IMG/VR virus record: IMGVR_UViG_3300008807_000633
Span: 1-5,005 of that record
DNA: 5,005 nucleotides
DNA from: a virus
Direction: 5' to 3' (one strand)
Position numbers and translations under genes: made by a program. Below the pieces are notes generated by a model. It was not told the DNA's origin, did not search any database, and was given only the letters and a program-made list of their open reading frames with translations. Shown piece after piece: positions 100-5,005 of the stretch (the first letter of the stretch is position 1; each line of letters begins with the position of its first letter).

Positions 100-189
100 A
101 CCATTAATCGTGACGATTGTTGCCATGGTAGAAAGCTGCTTGTGCAGCTCCATCATTTTGTAACTCAGATCAAGTTTTGAAGCTTTCAT
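1..189 (-). CDS. Hypothetical acidic protein, 5' part (first 63 codons) of a 145-aa ORF that continues across the circular junction into 4906->4658
   Basis: ATG at 189-187. It is preceded by AAGGAGGTG (202-194) and by an in-frame TAA (192-190), so no upstream extension is possible. My hand translation is MKASKLDLSYKMMELHKQLSTMATIVTINGDIILDDELKALVYMALRPALEKRLKTGALAPVS..., and the frame is open to base 1. The ORF track shows only the internal Met (4966) because the window cuts the gene. Confidence 0.8.
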   Translation of the reverse strand, partial: MKASKLDLSYKMMELHKQLSTMATIVTINGDIILDDELKALVYMALRPALEKRLKTGALAPVS

Positions 190-215: not shown

Positions 216-255
216 ATTATAGCGCTGCACTAAAGTTTTGTGCAAGCTTTTTTTT
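216..255 (-). promoter_or_regulatory. Sigma70-type promoter with an upstream A-tract, driving the 145-aa ORF and probably the whole genome-length transcript
   Basis: The minus strand reads AAAAAAAA(255-248)GC-TTGCAC(245-240)-18 nt-TATAAT(221-216). The SD follows about 14 nt downstream and the ATG is at 189. The -10 is a perfect consensus and the -35 matches TTGACA at 5/6. The A8 tract sits where an UP-element proximal subsite would lie. Confidence 0.65.
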
Positions 256-389: not shown

Positions 390-412
390 TTCCCCTTTAA
401 ACACCAGACAAC

Positions 413-439
413 AAAAAAGGGCGGTAAACGCCCTTTTTT
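413..439 (-). terminator. Rho-independent (symmetrical, potentially bidirectional) terminator downstream of VP3
   Basis: The plus strand reads AAAAAA(413-418) GGGCG(419-423) GTAAA CGCCC(429-433) TTTTTT(434-439). On the coding strand this is a GC stem followed by a U6 tract, about 90 nt after the VP3 stop codon. Confidence 0.7.
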
Positions 440-449
440 GAATTTTGAA

Positions 450-491
450 GCCGCAAGCGGCTATAAGTTGCGCGACCGCCGCAAGCGGCTA
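450..491. repeat. Direct repeat (2 x 14 nt, GCCGCAAGCGGCTA), each copy containing a 4-bp-stem tetraloop hairpin
   Basis: 450-463 and 478-491 are identical. Each contains GCCG-CAAG-CGGC, which is GCCG-CTTG-CGGC on the coding strand. The flanks are also similar (GTTGCGCGACC versus ATCGCGCACC), suggesting an imperfect tandem duplication of about 28 nt. Confidence 0.75.
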
Positions 492-503
492 AATCGCGCA
501 CCA

Positions 504-520
504 CGGGGCATCCTGCCCCG
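504..520. other. 7-bp GC-rich hairpin immediately after the VP3 stop codon
   Basis: CGGGGCA (504-510), TCC loop, TGCCCCG (514-520). It lies 11 nt downstream (coding sense) of the VP3 TAA at 533-531. Confidence 0.6.
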
Positions 521-530
521 GCCCCCTGAT

Positions 531-923
531 TTAGCTGCTCGGCTTTGCCTCGACAGCAGAAGCCGGTTGATCAGTAGGAAGTGTTTCAGGCTTCTGTTCA
601 GCCTTCACGCGCGCAGCTTCGAGATAATCCGAGTAGCTGCGCATTGCAACAACCGACTCAGCCACCAGCTCAGTAAGATCACGATTGAGCGCGGACACAT
701 CATCATAAACGCCTTGCTTCATTACCGGAGGTAAAAACCCGGTTTTTTCATAGCGCGCAATGATCTTGTTGATATCACACGCATCCGCATCCGCCTGGAT
801 TGTCTTTGATTCACCAACAGGTTTGGCCTGGACACGCAACCGCTCGCCGGGCTGCATGCAGAACGGAGTTTCGATCAAATGCTCAACATCATGATACCGA
901 TTCATTTCACCATTAATCGACAT
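531..923 (-). CDS. VP3: VP3 internal scaffolding protein (130 aa)
   Basis: ATG at 923-921, 4 nt after the VP2 TGA (930-928), preceded by AAGGTGA. The product is MSINGEMNRYHDVEHLIETPF...ADADACDINKIIARYEKTGFLPPVMKQGVYDDVSALN..., and the CDIN-x5-Y-x-KTG block followed by an acidic/helical C-terminus is the pattern I recall for gokushovirus VP3. TAA stop at 533-531. The 228-aa track ORF is an out-of-frame GTG-started extension over VP2. Confidence 0.8.
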   Translation of the reverse strand: MSINGEMNRYHDVEHLIETPFCMQPGERLRVQAKPVGESKTIQADADACDINKIIARYEKTGFLPPVMKQGVYDDVSALNRDLTELVAESVVAMRSYSDYLEAARVKAEQKPETLPTDQPASAVEAKPSS

Positions 924-1684: not shown

Positions 1685-3304
1685 TCAGAAATGATCAATA
1701 AGCCCTGGAACAGAATAAACAGGCATGGGACGATCACACTTCAGATCAAACCAGGCATCACACAAGAAATGTGGCTCAGCAGGCACGGCAATGCAACGAT
1801 CAATAGGCGGATTGTCCTCAATAAACGACTCATTAAGAACAGGCGCCGCCGAAAAATCCTGGGCACAATGCCAGACGTCCAGGCTAGACGCTACATCGGA
1901 GTTAAACATGCCTGTAATACGCGACGGTTTGTAACGATATTCCGCGTAACGTTCCTGGTAACCGAAAACCGTCTCATCGCCGGCCGGAACACCGGTAATA
2001 AAAATTTCCCGACGCAACACAGTTTGCTCGCCAAGATGCACTAGGGCTGGCCAATAAAAATCGTAACGCGTACGGCGAAACCAAAAACGCTCAACACCCT
2101 GCTGATAAGTAAGATCGGCGCGAGCAGAAACCAACCCGATAATAACACCGTGTTCCTCGAAAGACTTCTGAAAACCACCGTTATTGACGCCAGTACCAAA
2201 AGCAGCAAGGTTTCCTTGAGGTGTAGTACCAGTAATAGCAGTTTGAGGAACGCTGTTGATATTCACGCGCGTAGTTCCACCACCCAAATATTCAGGACGC
2301 TGCAACCGAGCGTCAGAAGACGACACACCGAAATGAGCCAATATAATCTCGGTGTAACGGGTACCACCACGAGCATCACGCTCCAACAACCGCTGGATCT
2401 GAAACGCAGTGCGCAACGAATTAATATCAATAGACGACGCTGAAGACAAATCAGCGTAAAGGTTAGAAGGATAAACTTGAGCAGTACCAGCTCCAGGCGC
2501 AGTACCAGAAATAGAAGTGCCAAATGACGGAGATGCATTTGATCCAAGCATGCCGGCTACAGCATTCGAACCATCTGACGCATTATTCCAGAACAGAGTG
2601 CTACGCGCACCAGAAACAGTATCACTCGAGGAAGTGAGAACAGGAGCCTGACTACCAATAGGTACAACCACCGGCGAGCCTTTCTGCGCCCAAGGCAAAC
2701 ATGACGTAAAATAATCATGACGTTTACCACGACGCCGCAAAACATAGTTCGCAAGAACGTCAGGACCATCACCAGTATTAACCACAAGCGAATTAACCAG
2801 GTTTTGGTCTCGATACCACTCGTTGTAAATCAGATTGTACGCACGAAACGGCAGAGCGTTAACGTTAACAACGGTCGCGCTAGCGCGAGTCGGGATACCG
2901 AAATAGCAAGCCAAATGATCAGCCGCTAAATTCAGCGGCACAGGAACCGTAGGAATAGTGAAAACGGTAGAATCACCTGGATTAGTCTGTTCTCCATTAA
3001 ACTTTTTCCAGTTGCTCCACAACAGGCGGTAAGGGACAAACCAAAAATGGGAATCCAGGTAAATGTTATCCATAATCGGCTTGATCGGAGTAGCAAGCCG
3101 GCAAAAAAACGTCGCCCGCATAGTGAAAGTATCACCAGGCAACACTTCATCAACATAAACCGGCACAAGATAGCCGGCGTCAAACGTAGTCTTGAGACCG
3201 TGCGACCGGTCAAAACGAGAACGGGGAATTTCAGCGCGCGGAACAAAAGAAAAATGTTGCTGAGAATTCATTACAGACGGCTGAACAAACGGTTTATCAA
3301 ACAT
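1685..3304 (-). CDS. VP1: VP1 major capsid protein (F-type jelly roll), 539 aa from ATG 3304 (544 aa if ATG 3319 is used)
   Basis: This is the longest ORF. It carries the hallmark gokushovirus VP1 blocks IPRSRFDRSHGLKTTFDAGYLVPVYVDEVLPGDTF, LDSHFWFVPYRLLW, ARGGTRYTEII..HFGV...DARLQRPEYLGGG and RYDFYWPAL. ATG 3304 has GAGG (3317-3314) 9 nt upstream, whereas ATG 3319 has no SD. A third in-frame ATG at 3271 cannot be excluded. TGA stop at 1687-1685. Confidence 0.95.
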   Translation of the reverse strand: MFDKPFVQPSVMNSQQHFSFVPRAEIPRSRFDRSHGLKTTFDAGYLVPVYVDEVLPGDTFTMRATFFCRLATPIKPIMDNIYLDSHFWFVPYRLLWSNWKKFNGEQTNPGDSTVFTIPTVPVPLNLAADHLACYFGIPTRASATVVNVNALPFRAYNLIYNEWYRDQNLVNSLVVNTGDGPDVLANYVLRRRGKRHDYFTSCLPWAQKGSPVVVPIGSQAPVLTSSSDTVSGARSTLFWNNASDGSNAVAGMLGSNASPSFGTSISGTAPGAGTAQVYPSNLYADLSSASSIDINSLRTAFQIQRLLERDARGGTRYTEIILAHFGVSSSDARLQRPEYLGGGTTRVNINSVPQTAITGTTPQGNLAAFGTGVNNGGFQKSFEEHGVIIGLVSARADLTYQQGVERFWFRRTRYDFYWPALVHLGEQTVLRREIFITGVPAGDETVFGYQERYAEYRYKPSRITGMFNSDVASSLDVWHCAQDFSAAPVLNESFIEDNPPIDRCIAVPAEPHFLCDAWFDLKCDRPMPVYSVPGLIDHF

Positions 3305-3635
3305 TGGCCTGGACCTCATCGGAAGAAATTTGATCTTTCACGGAATCGTCATGCTCAGCGACAAACTGAATAAATTTCGGCAACTCGACAATGGGCAATC
3401 TTGAACAAATAATGACAGTTGACCCATCTTTGGGAACCTCTTGCGTTAAAACCAAAACACAATGATCATCCGGATTGGCACCCTCAGCAGAAAACGCACG
3501 CTGAAGCAATGACACTAAAAACGGGGGAGTACCCGACAGTGGTTCGGAGCGCTCTCCAGTAGTCTTGTGTACCAACTGAACAGTCATGTCGTAAGCCAGT
3601 AAATTAAAAACAGGCTGAATCGTCTTTTCGTTCAC
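3297..3635 (-). CDS. VP5: VP5-like small non-structural protein (112 aa), GTG start
   Basis: GTG at 3635-3633 overlaps the VP4 TGA (GTGA) and follows a strong SD, AAGGAGA (3649-3643). The gene sits between VP4 and VP1, as ORF5/VP5 does in gokushoviruses. There is a loose match to the VP5 pattern PPF...A.R.F....P(E/D)D(Y/H).L (here TPPFLVSLLQRAFSAEGANPDDHCVLVL). The coding call is solid, but the family call is weaker. Confidence 0.7.
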   Translation of the reverse strand: MNEKTIQPVFNLLAYDMTVQLVHKTTGERSEPLSGTPPFLVSLLQRAFSAEGANPDDHCVLVLTQEVPKDGSTVIICSRLPIVELPKFIQFVAEHDDSVKDQISSDEVQANV

Positions 3636-4486
3636 TTTATTTTCTCCTTAAGTTTGCGCTCATATAGGCGCTGTTTGAGGTAGACCTCCTTAGCGGCGGC
3701 CTCCCGGTAAATTTCAAAAAAACCCTGCTCCCGTAGCCGCTTCTCAACCTTAGCCTTGCGCATCTGTTTAACGTGGAACAATTCATACTCCATCCAAGAT
3801 AAATAACGAGGTGGCACAGCTTCCTCTTTGCCCTCGATAACGACGAAACCATTATTAGCCACATCTTTCCAATATTTCTGAATCCAACGGTAGCCAATTC
3901 CACCGTCTGGACGACGACCGCGTGACATGAGGCAAAATGTATCCGCGTCGCCTATCTTTTTATTAACATATCCGGCGACGTAACAGCAGGACGCCATAGT
4001 AACAGGCGCGCATGAAACAAGACCTGCCCCCCACGCTTCCGCAAGCTCAGGGTTACAGAACAGATTTTCGTTAATCTGTATATTTTTATACGACAGGAAA
4101 TCCTGACCAAAAATAAGCGCGTGATAATGCGGACGACGAGTGCTGCCACCATACTCACCACACGCAAAATAGCGGAAATCGTATTCATGACGAAGCCTCT
4201 TGAAAAAATCCTGTAAATGCTTTTTGTGTATTTTTCCGTCGCCAAGATGCTTATCATCCAGCGTCAACGTAAGGAACGCGTTTTGATCATATAAACTGGA
4301 TTCTTGATAACACCGAATAGCCCACATGCGGGACACATCGGCTCTACAGCCGTCGCATTTGCCGCAAGGCACCTGGAGGGCCTGATCGGAAAATCCTTGA
4401 CTCCGGTTAAACACCAAGGAGCGCTTGCCAGTTTCAAGATTAACACGTTTCGCCCTCCAGGCATCTCGCGGGTAAAAGCAGCCCAT
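3632..4486 (-). CDS. VP4: VP4 rolling-circle replication initiator (HUH endonuclease, 284 aa)
   Basis: Motif I is FLTLTL (aa 71-76). Motif II (HUH) is HYHALIF, with CAT TAT CAC at 4129-4121. Motif III is YVAGYVNKK, with two catalytic-type tyrosines (Y169 at 3982-3980, Y173 at 3970-3968), as in phiX174 protein A (YVAKYVNK). The N-terminal CGKCDGC cysteine cluster is typical of gokushovirus VP4. The ATG at 4486-4484 overlaps the upstream stop as TAATG, and GGAGGT lies at 4503-4498. Confidence 0.93.
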   Translation of the reverse strand: MGCFYPRDAWRAKRVNLETGKRSLVFNRSQGFSDQALQVPCGKCDGCRADVSRMWAIRCYQESSLYDQNAFLTLTLDDKHLGDGKIHKKHLQDFFKRLRHEYDFRYFACGEYGGSTRRPHYHALIFGQDFLSYKNIQINENLFCNPELAEAWGAGLVSCAPVTMASCCYVAGYVNKKIGDADTFCLMSRGRRPDGGIGYRWIQKYWKDVANNGFVVIEGKEEAVPPRYLSWMEYELFHVKQMRKAKVEKRLREQGFFEIYREAAAKEVYLKQRLYERKLKEKIK

Positions 4487-4587
4487 TAGAACCGAATACC
4501 TCCACGGAAAGGCATATAACGATTGCTGCGGTGCGAGCGCGTTGCGCTCCGTGTGAAATTGCCATTACCAGTCGGTTTGCGTTTCAT
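4486..4587 (-). CDS. Small Arg/Lys-rich DNA-binding/packaging protein (33 aa; ORF8/VP8-like, functional analogue of phiX174 J)
   Basis: This ORF is too short for the ORF track, so I translated it by hand: ATG 4587-4585, MKRKPTGNGNFTRSATRSHRSNRYMPFRGGIRF, TAA 4488-4486. GGAGGTG (4598-4592) lies 4 nt upstream. There are 9 K/R residues and no acidic residue. The C-terminal P.RGGIR(F/L) ending and the position just upstream of VP4 match the small basic protein of gokushoviruses as I recall it. Confidence 0.75.
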   Translation of the reverse strand: MKRKPTGNGNFTRSATRSHRSNRYMPFRGGIRF

Positions 4588-4614
4588 TTGACACCTCCAA
4601 AAGTGTCGTTGTCA

Positions 4615-4651
4615 GTGAGACGAGAAGGATCAAGTGCCGTTCTCGTCTCAC
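4615..4651 (-). promoter_or_regulatory. Perfect 12-bp stem-loop between the 145-aa ORF and the small basic gene; function unknown (candidate replication-origin hairpin, attenuator or mRNA-stability element)
   Basis: GTGAGACGAGAA (4615-4626) is the exact reverse complement of TTCTCGTCTCAC (4640-4651). The 13-nt loop on the coding strand reads CGGCACTTGATCC. The hairpin starts 6 nt after the TGA of the 145-aa ORF. No U-tract follows, so it is not a canonical intrinsic terminator. Confidence 0.6.
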
Positions 4652-4657
4652 ACGTTA

Positions 4658-5005
4658 TCATGGATTTTCAAAGGGCGCAACAAGCTTGCGCTTACCACTT
4701 TTGGACAATGCACCCGTGGGTTGCGCAGACTGATCTGACGCTGCAGTACCATGGATCGATGCACCATTTTCCACAGACTGTTGAACCTTTTTTTCCTGTT
4801 CGGTGTCCTTTAAAATATCACCGGCTCCGACAGTATATTGACGGTCGATTTCCTCTAACAGATCAAGCTGATTTTCGGTGCCATCCTGGATGAATTCGCC
4901 ATTGACAGACACCGGCGCAAGCGCGCCGGTTTTGAGGCGCTTTTCAAGCGCGGGGCGAAGTGCCATATAAACCAGCGCCTTCAGTTCATCATCCAGAATG
5001 ATGTC
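4658..5005 (-). CDS. Hypothetical acidic protein, 3' part of the same 145-aa ORF (5' end lies beyond the window edge, at 189 in copy 1)
   Basis: The frame is open from the window edge down to TGA at 4660-4658. The track protein MALRPALEKRL...KSGKRKLVAPFENP is residues 44-145 of the joined ORF. There is no hydrophobic segment. The centre is acidic (EFIQDGTENQLDLLEEIDRQ, DILKDTEQEKK), followed by a low-complexity S/A/Q/G stretch and then a basic KSGKRK tail. Confidence 0.8.
   Translation of the reverse strand, partial: DIILDDELKALVYMALRPALEKRLKTGALAPVSVNGEFIQDGTENQLDLLEEIDRQYTVGAGDILKDTEQEKKVQQSVENGASIHGTAASDQSAQPTGALSKSGKRKLVAPFENP
4907..5005. repeat. Terminal redundancy, copy 2 (identical to 1-99)
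   Basis: Same as above. The repeat runs exactly to the window end. Confidence 0.95.

Follow-up and report, generated by a model that had tools for sequence, protein, structure and literature searches.

The locus and its genes

The window analyzed here is the whole stretch of 5,005 nt from IMG/VR record IMGVR_UViG_3300008807_000633. It holds a complete, circularly permuted microvirus genome, 4,906 nt in length, with a terminal redundancy of 99 nt, as 1-99 and 4907-5005 are identical throughout. All genes are carried by the minus strand, and the subject of this work is a hairpin on that strand at 4615-4651. Read along the gene strand, a promoter-like site and a 145-amino-acid (aa) open reading frame (ORF) are followed by the hairpin, a small ORF8/J-like gene, VP4, a 112-aa ORF, VP1, VP2, VP3 and a non-coding region. 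The hairpin, the conserved TGACA box behind it (together referred to as the module) and a ribosome binding site (RBS) make up a 69-nt intergenic gap. The original prediction had taken this gap for a VP3-VP4 intergenic region with VP4 directly after the hairpin. Both neighbors are in fact different: the upstream gene is the unannotated 145-aa ORF rather than VP3, its stop lying 6 nt ahead of the hairpin, and a 33-aa basic ORF with an RBS (4587..4486, minus strand) intervenes before VP4.

VP4 (3632..4486, minus strand) is assigned by Pfam, PHROG and motif as the HUH rolling-circle replication initiator (Rep). It matches Pfam PF23343 REP_ORF2-G2P (E = 9e-19), its only Pfam match, with a helicase domain absent, and phrog_942, a replication initiation protein (E = 8e-78). 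The two-tyrosine motif YVAGYVNKK that the original prediction had likened to the active site of phiX174 protein A is indeed in place, reading CYVAGYVNKKIGD in the window and FYVAKYVNKKSD in phiX A.

The hairpin consists of a perfect stem, complementary at 12 of 12 bp, and a 13-nt loop, as predicted. On the gene strand it reads GTGAGACGAGAA-cggCACTTGATcc-TTCTCGTCTCAC, with the 5' arm GTGAGACGAGAA at 4640..4651, the loop CGGCACTTGATCC at 4627..4639 and the 3' arm TTCTCGTCTCAC at 4615..4626. By our own arithmetic, 5 kb of sequence would be expected to contain a perfect inverted repeat of 12 bp with at most 20 nt between its arms about 0.005 times. When the 91-nt context is folded as single-stranded DNA (ssDNA) the stem forms and is the dominant local structure, at -15.8 kcal/mol (z = -3.19), and none of 200 dinucleotide shuffles folds as well. 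The heptamer ACTTGAT lies within the loop at 4635..4629 (minus strand), where it had been reported, and includes the conserved core CTTGAT at 4634..4629. The accompanying caution that such a 7-mer may arise by chance was justified: the window contains two matches against 0.68 expected, 32 of 200 shuffles give at least two, and the second copy (169-175) merely encodes K-L-D in an ORF. Since the heptamer is not significant in the window alone, the claim that the hairpin is an origin rests on comparative data.

The box ACTGACAACG (4607..4616, minus strand) carries TGACA at 4614..4610, immediately 3' of the stem and at +17 to +21 from the predicted nick. In the ssDNA fold a weak second dyad is seen at 4589..4614 (minus strand), pairing TGACA (4614..4610) with TGTCA (4593..4589). 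This dyad, TGACA-N16-TGTCA, is only 5 bp long; it has an inner pairing of GACAC (4607..4603) with GTGTC (4594..4590), and the dyad encloses the RBS of the ORF8/J-like gene, GGAGG at 4598..4594. A perfect 10-nt long-range inverted repeat (4596-4605/4696-4705, TCCAAAAGTG/CACTTTTGGA) flanks the hairpin together with the 3' end of the 145-aa ORF; it was considered as a meaningful element and dismissed, being about at chance level (roughly 0.5 expected, own arithmetic).

One module in all gokushovirus-like genomes examined

When the entire window was compared with GenBank phages at the nucleotide level, short patches in VP1 were all that matched and no close relative emerged; the loci of relatives were therefore retrieved by protein guidance. 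The best GenBank phage match for VP4 is that of Trichosanthes kirilowii gokushovirus (49.7%). VP4-guided retrieval yielded 8 and then 80 IMG/VR microvirus contigs with VP4 proteins 30-58% identical. All 89 gokushovirus-like genomes examined carry one module, composed of a variable stem, a CTTG-AT loop and a TGACA box. In a unified scan the module was found on the gene strand of 83 of the 89 genomes, against 0-5 in shuffled genomes. The other six genomes have the box 1 nt farther away (three) or the module on the other strand (three).

The 8 closest IMG/VR relatives, whose VP4 is 40-55% identical, each have the hairpin 137-204 nt upstream of VP4 and share the order VP3, non-coding DNA, hairpin, small basic ORF, VP4. 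Their stems are unrelated in sequence (ACCAGAT, GGACGATAA, GGGCTTGTA, AGGCATGCA, AAGGCGGGAA and others), and their loops (gcCACTTGACCa, gtcCACTTGATCC, agCACTCGACCa, acCACTTGATCC, etc.) all take the form ..C(A/C)CTTGATC... The same core emerges when no motif is assumed. Among the loop 6-mers of all perfect hairpins in 81 genomes CTTGAT ranks first: it occurs in a loop on the gene strand in 28 of these genomes, on the other strand in 5 and in 0-2 in ten dinucleotide-preserving shuffles. The wider CTTG[AT][TC] gives 45, 8 and 0-4 genomes, respectively.

Cultured phages are among the 89 genomes with the module. In Chp2 it is found at 2904-2941 as CTAGCGTATAACAG-tctaCTTGAT-CTGTTATACGCTAG-gTGATA, between VP3 and ORF8. 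phiMH2K has it at 3296-3335, between VP5 and the J-like gene, with the loop ggaccctaCTTGTTgtaa and an element reading ...ctaCTTGTTgtaa..., and SpV4 at 512-544, where the loop attaCTTGTTata is followed by tTGACG. In all three the element occupies the equivalent position in the gene order. That cultured phages of very different hosts share the module points to a phage rather than a host protein as its recognizer.

The module extends to the more distant Eel River pequenovirus and to human gut gokushovirus SH-CHD2. Alces microvirus MP11 (L090, MG641183) has a version at 2449-2489 with a 16-bp stem and the loop tctCTTGTT. Here the minor capsid gene immediately precedes the module and the end of Rep is about 1.4 kb away, so adjacency to Rep is not obligatory. 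Two further loop classes, CTTGTA and CTAG, were recovered with a widened motif and a covariance model. In one clade, CTACTAGATGT, CTAG replaces CTTG; the variant genomes include L021, L033, L034, L040, L047, L049, L056 and L064. A large clade (the L060-L082 group) reads GCAGATTAT-cctCTTGTAT-ATAATCTGC-taGGTGAC.

Covarying stems, an invariant loop and a box at fixed distance

MAFFT aligns 41 modules nearly gap-free on the loop and box blocks, the box without any gaps. As the alignment is anchored on loop and box, paired positions are not column-aligned, and the modules were split into two register/symmetry classes (A3 and A4). In these classes 78% and 70% of the paired cells are complementary, compared to 52% and 45% after shuffling; one gap column misregisters 2 and 5 sequences, respectively, so these percentages are conservative. 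The covariation score is 0.676 and 0.604 against 0.216 and 0.202 for shuffled data, with none of 500 shuffles reaching the observed value, and falls to 0.09-0.29 when the partners are slid. Of the pairs, 11 of 12 and 10 of 10 have changed on both sides, and single compensatory swaps can be seen between close relatives. The alignment of relatives that had been proposed as a check thus shows stems that covary around a loop that is kept.

A covariance model of hairpin and box (CM R1) matches the window at 4607-4651 (minus strand) with 49.5 bits (E = 1e-8). At E<=1 it detects 66 of 85 gokushovirus-like genomes, with one site in each (two in a dimeric contig) at 87-537 nt upstream of VP4. phiX174, included as an 86th source, gave no hit. 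It was the model search that exposed the CTAG loop class, and a pattern search showed CTTGTA-type or AT-rich versions in the genomes left without a hit. No Rfam family is found at the hairpin.

To describe the invariant parts, 51 modules were anchored on the G of CTTG as position 0. The loop core CT(T)G(A)T is kept in all 51, with C(-3) in 50, T(-2) in 51, T(-1) in 44, G(0) in 50, A(+1) in 34 and T(+2) in 43 of them. Downstream follows the block A(+15)-n-T-G-A-C-A-c-C, of which the part from T to the last C spans +17 to +23. The first base of the box falls on +17 in 37 of the 51 modules and on +18 in a further 10, independent of a stem length that varies from 7 to 14 bp. The hairpin axis is nearly fixed too, CTTG lying within about 2 nt of the loop apex. 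Across the genomes the loop pattern is C-T-(T/A/C)-G-(A/T)-T and the box pattern (A)CTGACA(C), 17-18 nt after the G; the gokushovirus consensus is cCcaCTTG^ATgttt.t.g.Ct.AcTGACAcC (^ marks the predicted nick). In 37 of 67 modules the box forms the left arm of an inverted repeat of at least 5 nt (e.g., ACTGACagGGTCAGT), whereas shuffled controls reach 7.2 on average and 15 at most. The box is a putative VP4 binding ('key') sequence.

Modules inverted relative to the genes

Three independent lineages (L043, L050 and KT264788) have a complete module opposite to all genes. Inverted modules are located at 462-507 (minus strand) in L043, 2759-2803 (minus strand) in L050 and 3529-3575 (minus strand) in L091 (KT264788), and also occur in L096-L098. 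L043 and L050 have all their ORFs on a single strand, and a perfect module with an 11-bp stem stands at the usual place on the other; the loops are tccTACTTGATg and tctCTTGAT and the boxes ACTGACACC and AGGTGACAGG, respectively. In Gokushovirus WZ-2015a (KT264788) the inverted module follows just past the VP4 stop. At this junction, 8 independent GenBank records from the feces of humans, monkeys and pigs are collinear, and all four of them that were inspected (KT264788 and three more) contain the module. The three further stems, CTCAGCC/GGCTGAG, CTCGGCC/GGCCGAG and CTCCGCC/GGCGGAG, differ by compensatory changes with the loop core and box unchanged. Gokushovirus prophages of E. coli were sought with the KT264788 sequence, without a match.

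An mRNA element or a terminator would not survive inversion, and inverted modules with compensatory stems hence indicate a strand-specific DNA site. The box, whose CTGACA resembles the -35 hexamer of a promoter, was also considered in that role and rejected: a suitably spaced -10 is lacking, the promoter scan is negative and the inverted modules are contrary to it.

Resemblance to mapped origins

Origin function has been mapped experimentally for the phiX-type phages only. The origin sequence common to phiX174, G4 and alpha3 is CAACTTG^ATAWTARTAACACTATAGACCAC, with the pattern CAACTTG^ATA...A..GAC..C. The phiX174 sequence cited in the original prediction is correct: NC_001422 annotates the rep_origin at 4306, within ccccaaCTTGATattaataacactatagaccac, and thereby the nick in CAACTTG^ATA. 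The gokushovirus consensus (cCcaCTTG^AT-N12-A-c-TGACAcC) agrees with this origin at -4 to +2, +15 (A), +18 to +20 (GAC) and +23 (C). Downstream of the nick core the agreement amounts to 5 of 7 informative positions in a fixed register (p ~0.013, our own binomial estimate). The systems thus have in common, on the gene (viral) strand, the nick core (A)CTTG^AT, which in the window loop reads cggCACTTG^ATcc, and a GAC block at +18 to +20 in a unit that ends near +23, TGACA(C) being found at +17/+18 in 47 of 51 modules. They further belong to the same virus family and encode a Rep with the YVA-YVNKK two-tyrosine motif. They differ in that the phiX174 origin lies inside gene A and has an AT-rich, unstructured spacer without a hairpin, whereas the gokushovirus module is intergenic, has the 3' arm of a 7-16-bp stem in place of that spacer and often has a dyad as its box. 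From its sequence, the module looks like the phiX 30-mer with the AT-rich spacer swapped for the 3' arm of a stem. Run on four Bullavirinae (phiX174, G4, alpha3 and Lilleen), the covariance model gave no significant match.

The VP4 Pfam family is named for ORF2/G2P, which brings in the plus-strand origin of the Ff phages. There, gpII nicks in the loop of hairpin D, next to partly dyad-symmetric gpII-binding repeats, a layout similar to that of the module; the Ff nick TTCTTT^AATA differs from the module core, and gpII has a single catalytic tyrosine arrangement. The module core is found in plasmids as well. CTTGATA is the conserved dso (double-strand origin) nick site of Rep_1 (pC194-type) plasmids (PMC10378824), the pC194 origin reading TTCTTATCTTGATAATAAGG (PMC7072734). 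The pC194/pUB110-type dso shares with the module the identical nick core, an HUH Rep and a place upstream of rep (PMC5703833). The Rep family is a different one (PF01446 versus PF23343 here), the flanks are unrelated, and the pC194 Rep uses one Tyr plus Glu (PMC5703833).

In the general layout of a dso, a nick locus in a palindrome extruded with the aid of Rep adjoins a bind locus, usually upstream of rep (PMC5703833; PMC5714925). By its sequence the module matches this layout, with a covarying hairpin around the putative nick site and, at a fixed distance, a candidate box that is often a dyad. The origins of CRESS-DNA viruses (which have a circular genome of ssDNA and encode a Rep) and of pMV158/pT181 plasmids likewise display the nick site in a loop, have Rep-binding repeats beside the stem and rely on Rep-aided cruciform extrusion (PMC5703833; PMC5714925). 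The CRESS-DNA nonanucleotide NANTATTAC is, however, absent from the window loop CGGCACTTGATCC, VP4 is without a superfamily 3 (SF3) helicase, and the loop is longer.

The nearest earlier report is that of Olo Ndela et al. (2022; PMC9865509), on two clades of tiny microviruses, the reekeekee- and roodoodooviruses. Ahead of Rep these have conserved hairpins whose loops are identical and whose stems show compensatory changes. These hairpins resemble the present one in belonging to Microviridae and in lying just upstream of Rep; they are likened here by description. Their authors leaned to a role as complementary-strand origin that 'cannot be certified' (PMC9865509). No description of a gokushovirus origin or of such a module was found in the open-access literature searched, a scope outside which the original genome papers of SpV4, Chp1/Chp2 and phiMH2K fall. 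The element would represent a new variant, namely a phiX-type nick-plus-key origin shown on a hairpin, with family-wide reach.

A probable viral-strand origin and its alternatives

In this study, we propose that the hairpin and the TGACA box (4651..4607, minus strand) form the viral-strand origin (dso) of the phage, the counterpart of the 30-bp origin of phiX174. We give this reading a probability of roughly 0.7 on the basis of sequence comparison: the module is present in every gokushovirus-like genome examined and strand-specific, its stems covary around an invariant loop, the spacing of the box is fixed, the arrangement is collinear with phiX174 and a two-tyrosine Rep is encoded next to it. 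The phiX-like nick site suggested by the original prediction thus gains support from the comparative data. By analogy with phiX174, VP4 is predicted to cut between G4631 and A4630. We infer the binding and cutting of the hairpin by VP4, the exact position of the cut and the role of extrusion.

The process could be as follows. On the supercoiled replicative form VP4 would bind the TGACA box, and the inverted repeat would extrude or melt, rendering the loop single-stranded. One tyrosine of YVAGYVNKK would then cut ...CACTTG^ATCC... and stay on the 5' A, the freed 3'-OH priming leading-strand synthesis. After one round the regenerated site would refold as a hairpin on the displaced strand, to be cut and joined by the second tyrosine, and the circular viral strand would be released and packaged with the ORF8/J-like protein.

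Several observations weigh against an origin of this kind. The differences from phiX174 in hairpin and location leave about 12 shared positions to carry the argument for homology. CTAG, CTCG and CTTGT variants are tolerated in the loop core, which is therefore not strictly the phiX sequence, and with 8-17 nt the loops are large for a cruciform that extrudes spontaneously. No obvious module was found in a Rhizobium microvirus with a distant VP4, and a PDB sequence search with VP4 returned no relative with a solved structure. Finally, a conserved hairpin on the packaged strand also resembles a complementary-strand origin.

A complementary-strand (minus-strand) origin would be recognized on the packaged ssDNA by host RNA polymerase, primase or the PriA primosome, which would begin its conversion into the replicative form there; known cases are the n' site of phiX174, the oric of G4 and the single-strand origin (sso) of plasmids. 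The hairpin is conserved on the gene strand, which is presumably the packaged one, in a non-coding stretch, and its orientation dependence, inverted modules included, fits an sso and a dso equally. Yet the module is short, at about 45 nt, compared to about 55 nt for the phiX n' site, 130-200 nt for ssoA and the three hairpins of the G4 oric. The loop and box are conserved over phages of Chlamydia, Bdellovibrio, Spiroplasma and gut and soil bacteria; priming signals are host-specific, and VP4 is what these phages share. Moreover, the core equals a nick core of the phiX174/pC194 type and no priming signal, and a distinct non-coding region after VP3, with far more structure (z = -5.6), could fulfill the role of sso. 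Hence, even with the hairpins upstream of Rep as a precedent (Olo Ndela et al., 2022; PMC9865509), we regard this explanation as unlikely. The box, being so often a dyad as is typical of operators, and the position of the module just upstream of ORF8-VP4 in most genomes would also suit another DNA site for a phage protein, either an operator of the ORF8-VP4 operon or a packaging/maturation signal, that is not nicked; in the window the second dyad even encloses the ORF8 RBS. A position-dependent operator role fits poorly with MG641183, where the module is not beside Rep, and with KT264788, where it is downstream of VP4 and inverted, and the invariant single-stranded loop with a nick core would be left unexplained, which makes this quite unlikely. 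Packaging of phiX174 is coupled to its origin, so a packaging signal is not truly distinct from a dso.

The hairpin also lies on the transcribed strand between two ORFs, 6 nt past a stop and with an RBS within 20 nt, as could be expected of an mRNA element: a terminator or attenuator after the 145-aa ORF, a hairpin for RNase processing or stability, or a control of ORF8/VP4 translation. The stem is, however, followed by TGACAACGAC rather than a U-tract, the terminator scan passes it over, Rfam holds no match, and a conserved loop with a box at fixed distance is not a feature of terminators. As three lineages keep an intact module on the non-transcribed strand, a role in RNA is largely refuted and very improbable. 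A dif-like site for XerCD recombination, by which integration has been described for Bacteroidetes and enterobacterial microvirus prophages (PMC3091885), has in its favor that the dif-like sites of microviruses are palindromic and the hairpin is a palindrome in a non-coding region. The conservation is the reverse of what it demands, since dif keeps its 11-bp arms and varies a short center, whereas here the arms vary and a center of 8-17 nt is conserved. In addition, the strictly lytic Chp2, SpV4 and phiMH2K carry the module and no prophage junction falls inside the hairpin among the loci examined, which renders this explanation hardly credible.

Strand polarity

If the module is the viral-strand origin, its orientation would determine which strand is packaged. 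Of the 89 genomes, those three with inverted modules show the lowest gene-strand (T-A)/(T+A) skews, i.e., they are the most A-over-T-rich, for which the chance of ranks 1-3 is 1 in 113,564. The TA skew of each is below that of all 8 of its nearest VP1 relatives, and the three are not mutual nearest relatives. This shift fits a change of the strand that spends time single-stranded. The GC skew of these genomes does not move in the way expected from simple deamination if the packaged strand were flipped. The TA skew is suggestive of a link between module orientation and strand identity.

A module that works in either orientation to the genes would imply that the inverted lineages package the strand complementary to mRNA. 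We therefore put forward, as a possibility that we consider more doubtful than probable, that all gokushovirus-like microviruses have the module as their strand-determining origin, that it is homologous to the origin of phiX174, with hairpin display possibly ancestral, and that L043, L050 and the WZ-2015a clade package the mRNA-complementary strand.

Neighboring genes and the region after VP3

The promoter scan places a promoter-like site at 244..216 (minus strand), ahead of the 145-aa ORF. The latter, deduced from the sequence, has its own RBS and runs on the minus strand from the ATG at 188..186 through 1-99 (=4907-5005) to the stop at 4660..4658, i.e., over segments 100-188 and 4658-5005, the latter encoding the C-terminal two thirds. 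Owing to the terminal redundancy and circular permutation, ORFs that cross the ends appear truncated in simple ORF lists. The 145-aa ORF interrupts the usual non-coding stretch between VP3 and the hairpin. Pfam and PHROG searches assign it no family, and no similarity was found to phiMH2K VP5, which has the equivalent position.

The small basic protein encoded at 4486..4587 (33 aa, MKRKPTGNGNFTRSATRSHRSNRYMPFRGGIRF) is preceded by the RBS GGAGG, and its stop overlaps the VP4 ATG (TAATG). It has a weak match to phrog_10695 (E = 1.7e-4). Homologues with the motif M[KR]R..RGGIR[FL] are encoded between hairpin and VP4 in the relatives L001-L008, and the counterparts bear the annotation ORF8 in Chp2 and J-like DNA-binding protein in phiMH2K. 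The 112-aa ORF (3297-3635, minus strand) between VP4 and VP1 overlaps its neighbors at both ends and has no family match. Pfam identifies VP1 as Phage_F (E = 2e-181) and VP3 as Chlamy_scaf.

The non-coding region after VP3 comprises 340 nt and is structured, with a terminator-like hairpin. The strong ssDNA structure is found at 395-535 (minus strand), where a GC hairpin, CCGGGGCAGGATGCCCCG, is accompanied by two copies of TAGCCGCTTGCGGC (491..478 and 463..450), each a mini-palindrome with a central CTTG, and by the terminator-like CAAAAAAGGGCG-TTTAC-CGCCCTTTTTTG (440..412) with A/T runs flanking both sides. This region is a candidate for both the complementary-strand origin and a terminator.

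Meaning for the gokushoviruses

Gokushovirus-like microviruses are the most numerous ssDNA phages of gut, marine and soil viromes, and their replication has so far been described by analogy with phiX174 only. With a universal module of 45 nt and a predicted cut site, the question of their origin can be tested directly. If the origin assignment is true, the module would provide a landmark for annotating circular genomes and orienting contigs, a minimal origin for gokushovirus-based replicons or phagemids in Chlamydia, Bdellovibrio and Spiroplasma, and new specificities for HUH-tags. It would also place the origins of phiX174, of pC194 plasmids and of the hairpin type in a single evolutionary series. 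If the inverted modules function likewise, they would show that the genome polarity of Microviridae is not fixed, and L043, L050 and the WZ-2015a clade, which is widespread in the guts of humans, monkeys and pigs, would be the first Microviridae of negative sense.

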